From: Escherichia phage vB-Eco-KMB42
Sequence record: OR539221.1
Strand: one strand, 5' to 3'
DNA: 64,000 nucleotides
Shown here in pieces: positions 1,357-61,470 of this stretch (position 1 is its first letter; each line of letters opens with the position of its first letter). The notes beneath the pieces are model-generated. The model was not told the origin of the DNA. It saw only the letters and a list, made by a program, of their open reading frames with translations, and did not search any database. The position numbers and the translations under genes were made by a program.

Positions 1357-2640
1357 ATGGCTAAAATCAACGAACTTCTGCGCGAATCAACCACAACGAA
1401 TAGCAACTCAATCGGTCGCCCAAATCTCGTTGCTTTGACTCGCGCTACCACTAAATTAATATATTCTGACATTGTAGCAACGCAAAGAACTAATCAACCT
1501 GTTGCTGCTTTTTATGGTATCAAATACCTTAACCCAGACAATGAGTTTACATTTAAAACTGGTGCTACTTACGCTGGCGAAGCTGGATATGTAGACCGAG
1601 AAAAAATCACAGAATTAACAGAAGAGTCTAAATTAACTCTCAATAAAGGCGATTTATTCAAATATAATAATATCGTTTATAAAGTATTAGAAGATACACC
1701 ATTTGCTGATATTGAAGAAAGCGACTTAGAGTTAGCTCTTCAGATTGCAATTGTTCTTTTAAAGGTTCGTCTATTTTCTGACGCAGCGTCAACAAGCAAA
1801 TTTGAAAGCTCTGATAGTGAAATTGCGGATGCTAGATTCCAGATTAATAAATGGCAAACCACAGTTAAATCTCGCAAACTTAAAACTGGTATCACAGTTG
1901 AATTAGCACAAGATTTAGAAGCAAACGGATTCGATGCTCCTAATTTCTTAGAAGATTTGCTTGCAACCGAAATGGCAGATGAAATCAATAAAGATATTCT
2001 GCAGTCTTTGATTACAGTATCAAAACGTTATAAAGTTACAGGAATTACTGATACTGGATTCATTGATTTGAGTTATGCATCTGCACCTGAAGCTGGTCGT
2101 TCATTATACCGAATGGTATGTGAAATGGTTTCGCATATCCAAAAAGAATCAACTTATACAGCAACGTTCTGTGTTGCTTCTGCTCGTGCCGCTGCGATTC
2201 TTGCTGCATCAGGTTGGTTAAAACATAAACCAGAAGATGACAAGTATCTTTCACAAAATGCCTACGGGTTCTTAGCTAATGGTTTACCGCTTTATTGCGA
2301 TACTAACAGCCCATTAGATTATGTAATCGTTGGCGTAGTAGAAAATATCGGTGAAAAAGAAATTGTTGGATCAATTTTCTATGCTCCGTATACAGAAGGT
2401 CTCGACTTGGATGACCCTGAACATGTAGGTGCATTTAAAGTTGTTGTTGATCCAGAAAGCTTGCAACCGTCTATCGGTTTATTAGTTAGATATGCTTTAT
2501 CTGCAAATCCTTACACCGTAGCAAAAGATGAAAAAGAAGCAAGAGTAATTGATGGTGGAGACATGGATAAAATGGCGGGTCGTTCAGATTTGTCTGTTTT
2601 ATTAGGTGTTAAGCTACCAAAAATTATCATTGATGAATAA
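1357..2640 (+). CDS. 24: capsid vertex protein gp24 (427 aa)
   Basis: size and sequence match T4 gp24, paralogous to gp23 C-terminal region; late promoter TATAAATA 1322-1329 and SD upstream. Confidence 0.93.
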   Translation: MAKINELLRESTTTNSNSIGRPNLVALTRATTKLIYSDIVATQRTNQPVAAFYGIKYLNPDNEFTFKTGATYAGEAGYVDREKITELTEESKLTLNKGDLFKYNNIVYKVLEDTPFADIEESDLELALQIAIVLLKVRLFSDAASTSKFESSDSEIADARFQINKWQTTVKSRKLKTGITVELAQDLEANGFDAPNFLEDLLATEMADEINKDILQSLITVSKRYKVTGITDTGFIDLSYASAPEAGRSLYRMVCEMVSHIQKESTYTATFCVASARAAAILAASGWLKHKPEDDKYLSQNAYGFLANGLPLYCDTNSPLDYVIVGVVENIGEKEIVGSIFYAPYTEGLDLDDPEHVGAFKVVVDPESLQPSIGLLVRYALSANPYTVAKDEKEARVIDGGDMDKMAGRSDLSVLLGVKLPKIIIDE

Positions 2641-2643
2641 ATC

Positions 2644-2668
2644 AAAGGGACCGAAAGGTCCCTTTTTA
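2644..2668 (+). terminator. terminator after gene 24 (GAAA tetraloop), also at 3' end of convergent rnlB
   Basis: GGGACC-GAAA-GGTCCC followed by TTTTTATTT. Confidence 0.8.
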
Positions 2669-2669
2669 T

Positions 2670-3674
2670 TTAGCTCACCAACTCAATCCAAGCCGGACGA
2701 AGTACATCTTGTACCATTTTAACTAATTCCTTTTTAACCAAAGAAGGATTATCCGCTTGAGTTAGAGTAATACCTTCACGAGAAGTTTCTTCCAAAATAT
2801 CTTGAACAGTTAGTCCCATCACCTTTCCAAAATCTTTTGGACCAATTTCGCCAATTTTAGAAATAACGTTATTTACTCGGTTCAGTGTAACGTAACAAGC
2901 TAAAATCCCCACCAATTTGTTATCAGCTTCTGACAATTCAACTTTAGCTTTAATAGGCTTATCAGACTTTTTCTTTTCACTAAATTTAGAATTCTTACAT
3001 TTGATGGCTACACGATTTCCATTATGAAGCCAAGAAGGATAACAAGGTTTCAATACATATCCTTCAGCAGTAAATACTTCGCCTTTTGCTTCGGCATTCC
3101 AAACGCATTTATTTGCATCAACTAATCCAGCATGGTCTACTGTAAAATTATAATCTTGGACGACAGAATCTAAATCATTTGGCAATTTAATAAGCTCTTC
3201 AAATTTACCGCGACCTAAAAGTGGAGCCATTTTAAATTTAAATGTATTACAGAATGATTCCATCATATAATCATCGACATAAGTCACATCACCACTTTCT
3301 GTAGTGACAATAATGTCAAATACATAAAAATCTTTATCACCATAATCAACATTCTTCTGAATGCCAGGTCCAGCGAATTCGCCAAAGACTTGATAAGATA
3401 CAACCGCTGAAGTTTCCATAATATCTTGTACTGCTTTAATGGAATCAGCGTAATTCTTTAGAATAATTTCATACCCAAAGAAATCTTCAGCAGGAAGAAT
3501 CGGTCCAGTACGTTTAGCGCAAGTTACTTTATCACGCCCAATAATCAATGAGAAATTTGTGCCGTGAATCTTTTCACGAGCTACCCATTCGCCGCCAGTC
3601 AATCCTAAGCTATAAAGTTTTTCAATAAATTTAGAGTTGTAATGATTTTCAAGACTGCTATACTTTTTAAACAT
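2670..3674 (-). CDS. rnlB: RNA ligase 2 (334 aa)
   Basis: N-terminus [13 protein letters not shown] and KIHGTN nucleotidyltransferase motif; T4 Rnl2 length. Confidence 0.92.
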
Positions 3675-3683
3675 AATTAATCC

Positions 3684-3962
3684 TCAAAATGTAATTTCTA
3701 ACCAATCACCATCACGCTGATCACTATTGACTTTAAAGCTGAATCCTTCTTTTCTCAGCCAATCACCAATTTCTTCAGTAATCAATTTATCACGAGCAGT
3801 ACAATAATAACTAAAATATGTTTTACCTTGTTCAGCTGCTTTATTAGCAAGTTCCGAAAAATCTTTAATAAAACACTCTAGTTTAAACTGTTTGCTTTTA
3901 AGTGCTTTTTCGCGTAATTGATTAGCAAAAGATTCATTTTCATAAAGATCATACTGTTCCAT
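3684..3962 (-). CDS. hypothetical protein (T4 24.2 position)
   Basis: ORF in syntenic position, tightly packed with neighbours. Confidence 0.6.
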   Translation of the reverse strand: MEQYDLYENESFANQLREKALKSKQFKLECFIKDFSELANKAAEQGKTYFSYYCTARDKLITEEIGDWLRKEGFSFKVNSDQRDGDWLEITF

Positions 3963-37857: not shown

Positions 37858-38718
37858 TTATACCGCCATTTTTCCTTTAATTGGCGGGTGAGATACATAG
37901 TTTTTAAGAACAAAATCATGTGGCTTTGCAAATTGACTCAACCAAAATACCTGCGATTCTGTGTCCCATTCATCAAATTCATCTGGAAATTTTAATTGTA
38001 ATTCGCATAAATCCATAGGTTCACGGCGTAAAATTTCTTTACATTGTTCTACGTGATTCATATAGATATGAGTATTACCACCAGAAAATATCAAATCTCC
38101 AGGAATAAGATTACACATTTTAGCTACAATATGAACTAACGTAGCATATGATGCAATATTAAATGGAAGACCGAGGAAAACATCTACCGAACGTTGATAC
38201 CACTGCAAATCCAAATAGCAATTACGCACATTAAACTGATAGAACATATGACAAGGAGGTAATGCCATATATTTAAGTTCAGCTGGATTCCATGCAGAAA
38301 CAATTTGACGCCTATCATTTGGCAGTTTTTTAATACGATCAACAACTTCTATAATTTGGTCTACACCGCCAAAATCACGCCACTGTTTTCCATAAATTGG
38401 ACCAAGTTCACCGCTATGGTATCCTAAATCTTTTGCCTGATTTTCGTAATTTTCATCCCAAACTGTTTTGCCTTGGATTAACGAATCGTGTTGAATTAAT
38501 CGTAAATCATTGACATTTGTGCTTCCTGATAAAAACCATATTAGCTCAGCAATGCATGCATTCCAGGCGAGCTTTTTAGTTGTTACTGCAGGAAAACCTT
38601 TAGTTAAATCCCAGCGTAATTTAGTACCGAACAAAGCAATTGTTCCTGTGCCTGTTCGATCATCGGTTTCATAGCCATTTTCAAAAATGTCTTTAATTAA
38701 ATCTTGGTATTGTTTCAT
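37858..38718 (-). CDS. td: thymidylate synthase, uninterrupted (no group I intron)
   Basis: continuous 286-codon ORF; ThyA active-site region ALPPCH. Confidence 0.95.
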   Translation of the reverse strand: MKQYQDLIKDIFENGYETDDRTGTGTIALFGTKLRWDLTKGFPAVTTKKLAWNACIAELIWFLSGSTNVNDLRLIQHDSLIQGKTVWDENYENQAKDLGYHSGELGPIYGKQWRDFGGVDQIIEVVDRIKKLPNDRRQIVSAWNPAELKYMALPPCHMFYQFNVRNCYLDLQWYQRSVDVFLGLPFNIASYATLVHIVAKMCNLIPGDLIFSGGNTHIYMNHVEQCKEILRREPMDLCELQLKFPDEFDEWDTESQVFWLSQFAKPHDFVLKNYVSHPPIKGKMAV

Positions 38719-38763
38719 TTAGTACCTTATATAAATTATAATACATTTTATGAAGCTAAATAA

Positions 38764-39111
38764 TCAATACGGTTTAGCATCAAATTTTCTCTCAATTTCA
38801 GGCGTGAAATATAATTCTTTACCACGTTTGGAAAAGCGACCAATAATATGATAATTATTCTCATCAAACGTGATATTACCAATATCCATAGCTTTCAACC
38901 AAATATCAATATTTCTATCCAGCTTTATGTCAAAATTCCAATACGGAGAACTATTACCGAAAATACTGCAAGCGGATTCAGTGAAACAACTGCTATAAAT
39001 CTTGTCTTTAGGAACTACTAATTGATAGACACCTTTAATAAACTGAGGACCCTGCCACTTTGGCTGTTTCTCGTCTTTTTCTAATAGAATAGGGTAATAA
39101 TTAAAATTCAT
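38764..39111 (-). CDS. hypothetical protein of unknown function (115 aa) inserted between frd and td
   Basis: clean ORF with phage-like codon usage; not recognised from T4 gene set; no nuclease motifs seen. Confidence 0.6.
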   Translation of the reverse strand: MNFNYYPILLEKDEKQPKWQGPQFIKGVYQLVVPKDKIYSSCFTESACSIFGNSSPYWNFDIKLDRNIDIWLKAMDIGNITFDENNYHIIGRFSKRGKELYFTPEIERKFDAKPY

Positions 39112-39130
39112 ATTTCCGCCACGCGTTATT

Positions 39131-39953
<823 letters not shown>

Positions 39954-39969
<16 letters not shown>

Positions 39970-40313
39970 TGAAAGGGGCCAGAAGCAAATCCGCTATCTT
40001 TAATCATTTTAACTAAAGTTACCATTCCTCTGTTAACTGCTTGTGCGATTTCATTAAAAACTTCATCACTATCACCATAAAGATCGCTAAAAAGTTCTAA
40101 CACGTTCTTCTGAACCTTTAATTTACAACCAACAAATTCGCCTACAGTAAATTCGTTTCCGCCAACTCCAGCGTAAAACGTAATTACACCAGTTAATGGT
40201 CTTTCACTAGAACATAGGTCGTGTGATAAATTAATATAAGCCGTCCCGGGCGCAGTTTTAAGTTGGCAACGAATACTTACTCGAGCAATTCCAGCTACAC
40301 GAATGTCAGACAT
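39954..40313 (-). CDS. hypothetical protein (frd.2 position)
   Basis: ORF in synteny. Confidence 0.6.
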
Positions 40314-40323
40314 AATATTTTCC

Positions 40324-40566
40324 TCAGACAGACTTTTTCACAATTTTCCAATCAGCTTTAAACTGATCAACATCAGAATGATAAATCCAGAATCCTGCGC
40401 TTTCTCCGTCTTCATAAAGAGGACATCCATCACATTCATCTTCCCATCCCATATCACGTAAAAGATGTTCAGCTTTTTCAACGAGTTCAGAATCTTTACC
40501 GATGATATTAAAATACCATTTACCTCTAACTTCCGAATCTTTAATGCTCTGGCGTTGTAATCTCAT
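40324..40566 (-). CDS. hypothetical protein (frd.3 position)
   Basis: ORF with SD GAGGAG and early promoter 40575-40640. Confidence 0.6.
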   Translation of the reverse strand: MRLQRQSIKDSEVRGKWYFNIIGKDSELVEKAEHLLRDMGWEDECDGCPLYEDGESAGFWIYHSDVDQFKADWKIVKKSV

Positions 40567-40574
40567 TTTATTCT

Positions 40575-40640
40575 CCTCAGTAGTTGATAGGGTAATAGTA
40601 TCACACTACTACCCTGTTGTAAACAATTATTTTTGAATTT
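40575..40640 (-). promoter_or_regulatory. early promoter upstream of frd.3-position gene
   Basis: minus-strand GTTTAC (40619-40624), -10 TACTAT. Confidence 0.55.
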
Positions 40641-40887
40641 TATCGAGCCACTTACCAAGCTTAATCATTTCTTTAGTAGCCTTTTCCATACTTCTGAACT
40701 TAACTAATAGAGGATAGGTATCGACACCCATAACTAAATTGGTTGCAAGACTGTGTTCACCCACAAGCCATAACGAATACGTTTGAATATCGAGTCCGTA
40801 ATTTCTGTCTTTATGGACCCGTACACCCATCACTTCAAATTTCTCACTAGCTTTTTCTACCGCATCCAGGAAATCATCTTTAGTCAT
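40627..40887 (-). CDS. hypothetical protein (variable region between frd.3 and gene 32)
   Basis: ORF; start placed at ATG 1 nt after upstream stop. Confidence 0.5.
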   Translation of the reverse strand: MTKDDFLDAVEKASEKFEVMGVRVHKDRNYGLDIQTYSLWLVGEHSLATNLVMGVDTYPLLVKFRSMEKATKEMIKLGKWLDKIQK

Positions 40888-40888
40888 A

Positions 40889-41275
40889 TTAGGCCTTAAA
40901 AGTTTTTCGCAAAAGTTCAATGATTTCATCTACATTGTTTTCGTCAACAATACAGTGAATTTTTGTTACGCCAGAAACTATACCTTCATTAGCGGATTGA
41001 GGCTTTTCTAAAGCTACCTCAGTAAAGTATTTGAATTCTTCAGGGTAAATCTCAAAATACGTCTCAAGTGGGCCACCCGCCATGTATTCAGTGCCATCTT
41101 CCATAGTTACACGTACCACACATTCACCAGTACAATCATCACTTTCCATTTCATCTACAACAAAACTAGGTCCGTGCTTCTCTATTAAATTTAGCATCAT
41201 TACATTGCAACGGCACTCGTTAGCAAAGTCATTTTTAAATAAAGGGTTAATGATATAAGTTTTTCCAACTTCCAT
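40889..41275 (-). CDS. hypothetical acidic protein (variable region, 128 aa)
   Basis: ORF preceded by hairpin plus SD. Confidence 0.55.
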   Translation of the reverse strand: MEVGKTYIINPLFKNDFANECRCNVMMLNLIEKHGPSFVVDEMESDDCTGECVVRVTMEDGTEYMAGGPLETYFEIYPEEFKYFTEVALEKPQSANEGIVSGVTKIHCIVDENNVDEIIELLRKTFKA

Positions 41276-41284
41276 TTTGATTTC

Positions 41285-41305
41285 CTCATTTTAACGGGGC
41301 TATTA
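41285..41305 (-). terminator. hairpin after variable-region ORF 41320-41550
   Basis: GGGGCTA-TTA-TAGCCCC. Confidence 0.45.
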
Positions 41306-41319
41306 TAGCCCCTTGATAA

Positions 41320-41550
41320 TTATTGTTCAATCAATCCCATGTAAAATTCTGCGTCTTCAGAATCCATACCATCACAATATTCATTAGCCATAAAGCGGGT
41401 GAGGTCTTCAAGAGGACCTTCAATGACAATAGAAAAATTGCAATAATTGGGATCATCATGAATACTTGTGATACTAAGTTCAGGATAACGATTACGAATA
41501 ATCTCTTCAATATATTCAAAATCAACGATGTCAATATCAACTTTAGCCAT
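41320..41550 (-). CDS. hypothetical acidic protein (variable region, 76 aa)
   Basis: start at MAKVDIDIV with SD GAGGAAAA, downstream of early promoter 41570-41650. Confidence 0.5.
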
Positions 41551-41569
41551 ATCATTTTCCTCTTTAATC

Positions 41570-41650
41570 ATCAGCAGTATTGCCGATAGTTGTATAGTAC
41601 CATGGAAGGACAAGGATGTAAACAGTTTTGTGAAAAAATTTTTGAAATAA
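41570..41650 (-). promoter_or_regulatory. early promoter with A/T-rich UP element, between gene 32 terminator and variable-region ORF
   Basis: minus-strand AAAAATTTTTTCACAAAAC UP element, GTTTAC (41617-41622), -10 TACTATACA. Confidence 0.6.
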
Positions 41651-41675
41651 AAAAGGGGACCTCTAGGGTCCCCAA
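41640..41675 (-). terminator. rho-independent terminator after gene 32
   Basis: minus-strand GGGGACCC-TAGA-GGTCCCC followed by TTTTTTATTTC. Confidence 0.8.
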
Positions 41676-41695
41676 TTAATTAGTAATATAATCTA

Positions 41696-42604
41696 TTAAA
41701 GGTCATTCAAAAGGTCATCCAGGTCCGTGTCATCAGCACTAGATGAACTGCCAGAGCTTGAGCTCATAAAATCATCTTCAGTTTTTGTTTTGAAGTCATC
41801 AACATTGAATGCATCTAAATCATCAGCAACTTTATCAGCTTTCTTAGCAGCAGTTGCAGCGGCACCACCCATAGCAGCAGTTCCCATAACTTGACTGAAC
41901 TTAGTGCTCAGTTCTTCAAACGATTTGAATTTATCTTTAGAAGTCATTTCAGAAAGGTCAACCATTTGTTCGAACAGTTCTTTCTGGAAAGATTCATCGT
42001 CAATGTTTGGAATCGCAGATTGATTCAGGAATTTAGATTCGTCGTAGTTACTAAAACCAGAAACTTGTTTAACTTTCAGTACAAAGTTAGCACCTTCCCA
42101 CGGACAAGTTACATCAACAGGAGTTTCACCCATTTCAACATCAACTGCAATCATTGCGTTGATTTTATCCCAGATTTTCTTACCGAAACGGTATTTAAAT
42201 ACTTTACCTTCATTTTCTGGAGCAGCTGGGTCTTTTACTACAAGAATGTTAGCCCAGTAAGAAGTTTTACGTTTAACAAGACCGTACTCTTTATTGTCAG
42301 TGTTGTACAAATCATTTTTACTGATGTACTGACATACTGGACAAGAATCGTAATCACCGTGGGTAGATGAACAGTTTTCAATATACCATTTACCATTTTT
42401 CTTGAAACCGTGATTTACAAGAATTGCGAATGGTGCTTGTTCATCATTTTTAGACGGAAGAAAACGAATTACTGCTTGACCGTTACCCGCATTATCGAGT
42501 TTCAGTTTCCACTCGCCTTTATCTTCAGAAGAAAAACCACCTTTATTTCCAGCCAGTTTAGCCATTTGTGCAGCGAGTTCAGCAGTAGATTTACGTTTAA
42601 ACAT
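41696..42604 (-). CDS. 32: single-stranded DNA-binding protein gp32
   Basis: N-terminus [17 protein letters not shown]; zinc-binding Cys/His region; characteristic autoregulatory leader. Confidence 0.95.
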
Positions 42605-42670
42605 TTTTATTTCCTTTTTAATTTAATTAACAGTTGGTGCTATGACGATGTATGACCTCATAGCTGGTCA
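42605..42670 (-). promoter_or_regulatory. gene 32 mRNA leader: autogenous translational operator (A/U-rich UUAAA repeats) preceded by pseudoknot
   Basis: minus-strand GCTGACCAGCTATGAGGTCATACATCGTCATAGCAC then TTAATTAAATTAAAAAGGAAATAAAAATG. Confidence 0.75.
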
Positions 42671-42681
42671 GTGAGATAATT

Positions 42682-42700
42682 ATAATCTATTTATAATAAG
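42682..42700 (-). promoter_or_regulatory. late promoter (minus) for gene 32
   Basis: plus-strand TATTTATA at 42688-42695. Confidence 0.55.
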
Positions 42701-42703
42701 CAA

Positions 42704-43357
42704 TTAATACTTGCAAGATTTCACAGTTTCAATAAAAACTTTTTTAGCTTCCTGTGAATCAATATTTAAAATTTTTCTATAAGCCTTTAACTTTATAGAA
42801 TAATTATTCCAGACTAAATTATCAGTCTGTTCATCATGTTTATCGATTATATTTAAAAACGAATCAAGCAAGATAAACGTCTCAAACGAAATTATATTCG
42901 ATTGAAGTAGTTTAAAAATATAACTTGACTGAACTTTTGGATTATAATCAAAGATTTCTTTAAAAGCAGAAACTTCAACTTTTTTACTAAAATAATAAAT
43001 GTTGCGAATATCTTCTTCAAACTTAAATTTAATTTGCTTTAAGCGTCCGATATATTCACGATAAAACACAAGTGCATCAGCGTCAGAGATGTCACCAATC
43101 CAAGCATCCTGGTTAGCAACAAGATTGCTTATAAAGATTAAAGCAAGTTCCTTTAATTTATATTTTTCTGATAACTTCTGAAAAAAATACTTATCCCTTC
43201 GCTTTTGATAAGCGGCATCAGACACCCGCATGCACCAATTGTACTTAATAACATCATATTTTCCATTCATATGTTGTTTTATCATTAAGTATAATTTATA
43301 AACTGATTTACCATCAATATATCTTTCACCACCAGCAGGCATGCGGAGTTTAATCAT
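42704..43357 (-). CDS. 59: gp59 helicase loader (217 aa)
   Basis: N-terminus MIKLRMPAGGERYIDGKSVYKLYLMIK; size. Confidence 0.92.
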   Translation of the reverse strand: MIKLRMPAGGERYIDGKSVYKLYLMIKQHMNGKYDVIKYNWCMRVSDAAYQKRRDKYFFQKLSEKYKLKELALIFISNLVANQDAWIGDISDADALVFYREYIGRLKQIKFKFEEDIRNIYYFSKKVEVSAFKEIFDYNPKVQSSYIFKLLQSNIISFETFILLDSFLNIIDKHDEQTDNLVWNNYSIKLKAYRKILNIDSQEAKKVFIETVKSCKY

Positions 43358-58261: not shown

Positions 58262-58345
58262 TTCTGTATCAGTAGTTGATAGTTGTATAGTACCACAGTA
58301 TGCTTTGGTTGTAAACCGTTTTGTGAAAAAATTTTTGAAATAAAA
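58262..58345 (-). promoter_or_regulatory. early promoter for motA with UP element
   Basis: same UP element as 41570-41650, GTTTAC (58311-58316), -10 TACTATACA. Confidence 0.65.
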
Positions 58346-61399: not shown

Positions 61400-61470
61400 C
61401 TGTTCCTCCGTAGTTGATAGGGTAATAGTACCACGGAAGAACAGTCTTGTAAACAACTTTTTAAAAATAT
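61400..61470 (-). promoter_or_regulatory. early promoter inside ndd-denB small-ORF cluster
   Basis: minus-strand GTTTAC (61449-61454), -10 TACTAT. Confidence 0.5.

Follow-up and report, generated by a model that had tools for sequence, protein, structure and literature searches.

Which of the small genes between gene 32 and frd.1 of a T-even phage are additional to those of phage T4, and do they form a transcription unit of their own? The question was raised by a locus in Escherichia phage vB-Eco-KMB42 (sequence record OR539221.1), from which a stretch of 64,000 nt, hereafter the window, was analyzed. Three small open reading frames (ORFs) of 76, 128 and 86 residues lie there between gene 32 and an 80-residue ORF. 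An earlier note on this DNA had described them as three acidic ORFs not recognised from T4, situated between the frd.3-position gene and gene 32 and forming an independently transcribed cassette with its own early promoter. Our comparison indicates that the locus is very likely the early transcription unit that T-even phages normally have behind gene 32, with one accessory gene, the 86-residue ORF (here termed ORF-C), added to it.

Gene identities at the locus

The ORF list confirmed the three ORFs at the described place, and every gene in the locus lies on the minus strand. Two of the three were found to be T4 genes. The 76-residue protein is 87% identical to T4 Frd.3 (NP_049853) by BLASTP and matches the Pfam family PF05798 (Phage_FRD3) with 129.6 bits (gathering cut-off 28.1; E 6.3e-38), residues 1-76 being aligned to positions 1-75 of the 75-position profile. 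The 128-residue protein shows 45% identity to T4 Frd.2 (NP_049852) over 128 residues (BLASTP, E 8e-29), with the last ~27 residues being near-identical, and matches PF03197 (FRD2) with 116.5 bits (gathering cut-off 29; E 9.4e-34). The neighbouring 80-residue ORF, which had been taken for the gene at the frd.3 position, is 99% identical to T4 Frd.1 and matches the Pfam family DUF5417 (E 2.5e-33). The three ORFs therefore lie between frd.1 and gene 32, and the map of the earlier note was shifted by two genes.

When the complete reassembled genome of T4 (168,903 bp) was searched by tblastn, Frd.3, Frd.2 and Frd.1 fell at their syntenic T4 positions, with the Frd.2 match at 146529-146149. In the T4 record the genes follow one another as 32, frd.3 (75 residues), frd.2 (128 residues), frd.1 (80 residues) and frd, and the records of RB51 and wV7 use the names frd.3 and frd.2 for the corresponding genes. 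We regard it as close to certain that the 76-, 128- and 80-residue ORFs are T4 frd.3, frd.2 and frd.1, arranged in the architecture described below. The same genome contains no counterpart of ORF-C (best tblastn E 0.5).

Being unrecognised from T4 is thus true of ORF-C but not of the other two ORFs. The description of all three products as acidic likewise holds for Frd.3 and Frd.2 but not for ORF-C, which has a net charge of +1 (isoelectric points, pI, are given in Table 1). The comparison with T4 that the earlier note had proposed yielded one gene that T4 lacks, whereas T4 does have frd.3, frd.2, the promoter and the terminator; functions are assigned to none of the three genes. The genes of this locus are already known, and the earlier interpretation rested on a mistaken gene order.

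The window was assigned to Tequatrovirus. The top match to it among the phage collection shows 96.8% identity across 22 kb and reaches 99% over the 1.4-kb stretch of this locus.

Table 1. Annotated features of the gene 32-frd.1 locus in the window
Feature	Coordinates	Strand	Basis
Gene 32, single-stranded DNA-binding protein, 302 aa; upstream neighbour, outside the unit	41696..42604	-	ORF list; syntenic gene 32 annotation in RB51, wV7 and T4
Terminator hairpin of gene 32	41655..41673	-	Terminator scan, folding, T4 identity
Early promoter of frd.3	41594..41623	-	Motif scan, T4 alignment
frd.3, 76 aa, pI 4.05, Shine-Dalgarno AAGAGGA	41320..41550	-	BLASTP, Pfam
frd.3/frd.2 intergenic hairpin	41296..41312	-	Folding, T4 counterpart
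frd.2, 128 aa, pI 4.38, minority allele	40889..41275	-	BLASTP, Pfam
ORF-C, 86 aa, pI 7.95, starts ATG (MTKDD)	40627..40887	-	phrog_4423, no T4 match
Early promoter of frd.1	40595..40624	-	Motif scan
12-bp hairpin overlapping the frd.1 promoter	40589..40615	-	Folding, kept in T4 and T2
frd.1, 80 aa, DUF5417	40324..40566	-	BLASTP, Pfam

Promoters, terminator and hairpins

In the direction of transcription the elements were found in the order gene 32, terminator, early promoter, frd.3, hairpin, frd.2, ORF-C, early promoter and frd.1. T4 shares the layout of gene 32, terminator, early promoter, frd.3, frd.2, early promoter and frd.1. The gene 32 terminator is a GGGGACC-CTAGA-GGTCCCC hairpin followed by a T-run, TTTTTTATTT. 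Its 7-bp stem, in which six pairs are G-C, closes a loop of 5 nt and has a folding energy of -14.3 kcal/mol (z = -2.4); the z values of the hairpins given here are relative to shuffled sequence, which they surpass by about 2.4-2.9 standard deviations. The terminator sequence is the same in T4, and the wV7 record annotates a rho-independent terminator.

Both early promoters consist of GTTTACA, a 17-nt spacer and a TG-extended TACTAT, that of frd.3 being preceded by an AT-rich stretch, and they match exactly the T4 early (sigma-70-type) pattern of GTTTAC(A/T), a 17-nt spacer and a TG-extended TAYWAT. A total of four occurrences of GTTTAC-N16-19-TACTAT were found in the window, where chance would give 0.01. 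Other exact matches to the early-promoter form GTTTACA-N17-(TG)GTACTAT were observed at 58287-58316 and 61425-61454, both on the minus strand. A promoter-like match at 41330-41302 was judged to be a chance occurrence: its TATAAT falls in the loop that the frd.3/frd.2 hairpin forms, and the T4 sequence there is TATCAA.

At the frd.3 promoter both hexamers (-35 and -10) and the TG agree exactly with those of T4 while most spacer positions have changed, which is the pattern expected of a functional promoter. Transcription of frd.3 would start at about 41587-41590. The T4 frd.3 mRNA ranks with the most abundant NAD-capped RNAs of this phage and starts with A (bioRxiv 10.1101/2024.04.04.588121); the cap identifies it as a primary transcript. 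The frd.1 promoter begins 2 nt past the ORF-C stop codon, and in T4 and T2 the equivalent promoter directly follows the frd.2 stop codon.

Motif scans and folding thus bear out the terminator and early promoter on the gene 32 side as well as the second early promoter, all of which the earlier note had reported. The first promoter, however, is the frd.3 promoter of T4 and the second the frd.1 promoter of T4, rather than promoters belonging to an extra cassette. Independent transcription did not hold up either, as no terminator was found between ORF-C and the frd.1 promoter. The sole structure there is the 12-bp hairpin, which spans the spacer and the -10 element of that promoter, has no U-tract (-15.2 kcal/mol, z = -2.9) and is conserved in T4 and T2. 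The three genes consequently belong to a unit with its own start and no demonstrated end.

The remaining hairpin, GGGGCUA-UAA-UAGCCCC between frd.3 and frd.2, likewise lacks a U-tract (-12.2 kcal/mol, z = -2.7). T4 has this hairpin too, with a different loop, and it may contribute to 3'-end formation, stability or processing of the RNA. Nothing relevant was returned by an Rfam scan of 38500-43000.

The accessory gene ORF-C

ORF-C is the sole gene among the three that is absent from T4, and it is already deposited as a hypothetical gene in a few hundred genomes. The profile of phrog_4423 covers it fully (E 3.7e-49, residues 1-86 against positions 1-86 of 86). Its counterparts RB51ORF239, wV7 F412_gp038 and JS98 orf232, all of them members of phrog_4423 annotated as hypothetical, are 95-98% identical to it, have 86 residues, lie 1 nt behind frd.2 and show no substantive difference from it. 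No match to ORF-C was found in Pfam, NCBIfam or PADLOC, a sequence search of the PDB was empty, and fold searches were uninformative. The AlphaFold2 model is of mediocre confidence, with a predicted local distance difference test (pLDDT) score of 70.8 and an alpha-beta3-alpha arrangement; ORF-C may be a roughly neutral domain of this fold.

The coding status of ORF-C is supported by several observations. Compared with the JS98 orthologue, twenty-two synonymous and five non-synonymous differences were counted, with a ratio of non-synonymous to synonymous substitution rates (dN/dS) of 0.04 at a dS of 0.62. Twenty-three columns are invariant among eighteen homologues, including the core KDRNYGLDxQTYSLW. 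The low dN/dS, the conserved columns and the presence of homologues in four phage lineages establish that ORF-C is a real gene, and the substitution pattern indicates that it is under strong purifying selection.

Matches to ORF-C were found by tblastn in 348 phage records, about 200 of them T-evens at 90% identity or more. Homologues elsewhere occur in phAPEC8-like Stephanstirmvirinae (58% identity), in the Drexlerviridae genus Guelphvirus (about 55%) and in Klebsiella Webervirus (42%), and the full-length homologues in other phage families range from 42 to 64% identity. The homologues of phAPEC8 and of the Webervirus IMGroot lie within arrays of small hypothetical genes, and that of the Guelphvirus SCS31 is flanked by recombination genes and a lipoprotein gene. 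No FRD2 domain was found in the neighbours that were checked outside Tevenvirinae. A profile search of 1.84 billion representative proteins yielded twelve family representatives, all of them stand-alone proteins of about 85 residues. A literature search on DUF5417, DUF7247, phrog_4423 and the Pfam accessions returned nothing relevant.

Variation in frd.2 and frd.3

The frd.2 gene of the window was found to be a mosaic, in which a diverged N-terminal part of ~100 codons is joined to an invariant tail. At the DNA level it shows about 40% identity to T4 over 41253-40993 and 97-100% in the 3' part (40962-40903). T4 frd.2 is alike in length, in position and in its C-terminal ~27 residues, while the window allele differs in the strongly diverged N-terminal ~100 residues. 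Among the 880 phage records that carry frd.2 there are at least three allele classes; the window allele (at 90% identity or more) occurs in 63 of them, about 7%, and its identity to the T4-type and T2-type alleles is 40-45%.

T4 Frd.2 is an early protein whose N-terminal half is predicted by AlphaFold3 to form an LSm/SH3-like beta-barrel, and it has been grouped with GoF and MotB.1, the shared N-terminal fold being a five-stranded bent antiparallel beta-barrel (PMC12152347). Sequence similarity of the window Frd.2 to T4 GoF and MotB.1 was not significant by BLASTP (E 1.2 and 0.018, over short stretches), as is likewise the case for T4 Frd.2 (PMC12152347). The combination of a hypervariable, predicted LSm-like domain with an invariant tail might have arisen from an arms race or from homology-arm recombination. 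Two further matches to Frd.2 were dismissed as chance, namely one to ankyrin in the PDB (E 0.001, no single stretch passing) and a weak one to SduA in PADLOC (E 0.005).

Frd.3 is the first gene past the gene 32 terminator and the early promoter, in the same synteny as in T4. The window protein is one residue longer than that of T4 and differs from it at residues about 29-39 (VQDSKFWSIQ in T4). The corresponding patch (41433-41462) has 57% identity to T4 and one added codon within a gene that is otherwise 93-100% identical. The Frd.3 model is confident, with a pLDDT of 93 that dips to 81 at the variable patch, and has a beta-alpha-beta-beta-alpha-alpha fold; the protein, very acidic with a net charge of -15, may be a ferredoxin-like domain. 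No sequence match in the PDB was found for Frd.3 and nothing was returned by PADLOC. The PHROG that contains Frd.3, phrog_1764, has a profile of 391 positions, of which Frd.3 covers 317-391 only. In some members of this group the Frd.3 domain may form the end of a far longer protein; alternatively, a small number of long sequences could have padded the profile.

Insertion site and origin of ORF-C

ORF-C is present or absent at one fixed site. The 3' end of frd.2, ORF-C and the promoter are contiguous in 155 of 870 records, whereas T4, T2 and most others match the two flanks only, and these flanks are conserved at the nucleotide level even where frd.2 diverges. In RB51, wV7 and JS98 the gene lies 1 nt behind a copy of frd.2, even though frd.3 is relocated in JS98. 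The order in this Dhakavirus (locus 1741-3350) is gene 32, the tandem paralogues frd.2a and frd.2b, ORF-C, frd.3 and frd.1. In Shigella phage CM8 a single match spans the conserved frd.2 3' end (annotated 'frd2') and ORF-C, with the CM8 frd.2 being 41% identical to that of the window. The view of the earlier note that this neighbourhood is variable among T-evens agrees with our observations: there are several frd.2 alleles, ORF-C comes and goes, and the JS98 order is rearranged.

The 3' junction of T4 and the window was compared by eye and by script, the MAFFT alignment being wrong there. In T4 and T2 frd.2 ends in …TTCAAAAAGTAG followed at once by TTTACA…, so that stop codon and promoter are directly adjacent. 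The window ORF-C ends in …ATTCAAAAATAA, then TT and GTTTACA…, and JS98 frd.3 likewise ends in ATTCAAAAATAA ahead of the cassette. The JS98 cassette, GTTTAC...TGATACTATAG...TATCAACT...GAGGA, is nearly identical behind gene 32, ORF-C and frd.3. ORF-C was probably gained and lost by homologous or microhomology recombination, for which the conserved frd.2 3' end and the repeated early-promoter cassette would provide the flanks; the latter has a short shared TTCAAAAA-stop motif just upstream of GTTTACA. This TTCAAAAA junction hints that the vacant sites of T4 and T2 may have arisen by deletion and may not be the original condition.

Such an origin is plausible, as it fits the published modular shuffling at early-promoter cassettes of T4-type phages, in which promoter-early stem-loop (PeSL) cassettes carry a TTTACW-N17-TAYWAT promoter (PMC4122927). 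The gene 32-side element of the window agrees with the PeSL layout (Arbiol 2010, PMC2839356; Comeau 2014, PMC4122927) of stem-loop, AT-rich stretch, promoter, Shine-Dalgarno (SD) sequence and start codon, with the hairpin at 41673-41655, the promoter at 41623-41594 and the SD sequence with ATG at 41550. As in PeSL cassettes, an indel (ORF-C) abuts the second promoter. That promoter (40624-40595), however, has no hairpin upstream and lies with its -35 element 2 nt from the ORF-C stop codon. As its hairpin covers the spacer and the -10 element and does not precede the promoter, it falls outside the PeSL definition.

Assessment of the proposed and alternative explanations

The explanation that we favour is that a sigma-70-type early promoter behind the gene 32 terminator would drive the early expression of frd.3, frd.2 and ORF-C, with ORF-C as an accessory gene of the phrog_4423 family that is appended 1 nt behind the frd.2 stop codon. 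The translation of ORF-C is probably coupled to that of frd.2, since the ORF-C ATG follows the frd.2 stop codon after a single nucleotide and the SD-like AAGG lies within the end of frd.2. As there is no terminator behind ORF-C, transcripts probably read through the next early promoter and extend into frd.1 and further downstream. The products might be dispensable, acting early as small binding proteins for macromolecules of host or phage and not as enzymes, and Frd.2, with its predicted LSm/SH3-like barrel, may act on RNA as has been hypothesized in the literature. Any specific function for Frd.3, Frd.2 or ORF-C is at most a tentative possibility.

Several points weigh against this explanation. 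The use of the two promoters in the window phage is deduced from motif matches and from T4, and the LSm-like fold of the diverged Frd.2 is a prediction carried over from its T4 relative. The published phenotypes of T4 frd.2 conflict: an amber mutant plates normally, with an efficiency of plating of about 1 (PMC12152347), whereas in a genome-wide dCas13d knock-down (CRISPRi-ART) frd.2 was the only T4 gene of unknown function to be scored 'Fit' (PMC11879866). The repeats at the ORF-C site are short and imperfect, which makes recombination a plausible scenario and no demonstration. Finally, neither a promoter nor a stem-loop lies immediately 5' of ORF-C, which is not a classical PeSL-flanked mini-circle cassette.

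Two alternatives concern the role of ORF-C. A role of ORF-C in counter-defence or host range, as a factor moving by itself among unrelated enterobacterial phages, is unlikely. Its patchy distribution over T-evens, Stephanstirmvirinae, Guelphvirus and Webervirus, its presence or absence inside a single genus, its strong purifying selection and the position of its homologues in arrays of small hypothetical genes (phAPEC8, IMGroot) or beside recombination genes (SCS31) speak for such a factor. Ordinary non-essential early genes are also patchy, however, and the family is tiny, with twelve representatives in 1.8 billion proteins. No similarity of ORF-C to known anti-defence proteins was found by PDB sequence search or by PADLOC, whose models describe defence systems and not their inhibitors. 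No result speaks for an anti-defence role of any kind for ORF-C, and such a role is rather unlikely. It is quite improbable that this protein has been passed among Straboviridae, Stephanstirmvirinae and Drexlerviridae as a portable factor of counter-defence or host takeover and was captured in T-evens as the translationally coupled partner of Frd.2, the LSm-like early protein with the hypervariable N-terminal domain.

In the second alternative ORF-C and Frd.2 form a translationally coupled two-gene module, perhaps a complex. The spacing of 1 nt and the SD-like AAGG inside the frd.2 3' end speak for it, as does the position of ORF-C directly behind a frd.2 copy in two genera (RB51, wV7 and JS98) despite the relocation of JS98 frd.3, and behind diverse frd.2 alleles such as that of CM8. 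This linkage could, on the other hand, stem from a single ancestral insertion site, and most carriers of frd.2 do not have ORF-C (880 records against about 200). The neighbours of the homologues outside Tevenvirinae carry no FRD2 domain, and an obligate pair was ruled out on this ground. A module of the two genes remains an improbable reading.

The three-gene cassette of the earlier note, independently transcribed, missing from T4 and endowed with host-takeover or anti-defence functions, is very improbable. ORF-C is indeed absent from T4, the region does differ among T-evens, and the three genes share a small size, a position behind an early-type promoter and the lack of a known function. Two of the genes, the promoter and the terminator, however, occupy the same place in T4, the unit is not closed by a terminator, the family and fold searches gave no defence-related lead, and the T4 frd.2 amber mutant plates normally. 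Judged by sequence comparison with T4, the novelty of the three genes is already refuted. That ORF-C is no true gene but a random ORF or a remnant in decay, as its lack of a Pfam family, its mediocre model and its weak SD sequence might suggest, is barely credible given the dN/dS of 0.04 at a dS of 0.62 against JS98, the full-length PHROG match and the full-length homologues (42-64% identical) in other phage families that share the KDRNYGLDxQTYSLW core.

Other differences from T4 around the locus

A normal T-even unit with one added gene is accompanied by further differences nearby. A 119-residue gene (39954-40313, minus strand; DUF7247, RB51ncORF237c) separates frd.1 from frd and is without a match in T4. 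The 71-nt gap between frd.1 and frd of T4 holds a 5' remnant of this gene (about 3700-3765 of the extracted T4 locus), the first ~44 nt being 93% identical and opening a 16-codon ORF, MYVIEIIQVSIRFQLK*. T4 is thus the deletion form at this site, since it has kept the remnant.

Two more ORFs on the minus strand are absent from T4. The first, of 81 residues (39712-39957; MIFVFEF..., pI 4.05, phrog_3183), lies just upstream of frd and is identical to T2_237 of T2. The second, of 115 residues (38764-39111; RB32ORF229c type, phrog_1928), lies between frd and td, and the RB51 record describes its counterpart as 'flanked by 9 bp repeat'. The td gene (37858-38718, minus strand) is an uninterrupted ORF of 286 residues with neither the group I intron nor I-TevI. 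The gap between gene 32 and gene 59 (42605-42703) measures 99 nt, and the segG homing endonuclease of T4 is absent there. T4 itself has an unannotated hydrophobic mini-ORF of 22 codons (MFAPYIMAAVMLVCLYLLIKAC) with a GGAG SD sequence between the frd.1 promoter and frd.1 (about 146,019-146,089 of the record); this insert of ~70 nt is missing in the window, RB51, wV7 and T2.

Implications

As a standard T-even frd.3-frd.2 early unit whose extra gene is already deposited, although unnamed, the locus itself is of little discovery value. In the corrected map the window differs from T4 by ORF-C and by the 119-, 81- and 115-residue ORFs around frd. The hypervariable N-terminal domain of Frd.2 deserves attention because T4 frd.2 was the sole gene of unknown function found to be important for fitness in the knock-down screen. 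The presence or absence of ORF-C at one site in many near-identical phages provides convenient natural variants for tests of its function.

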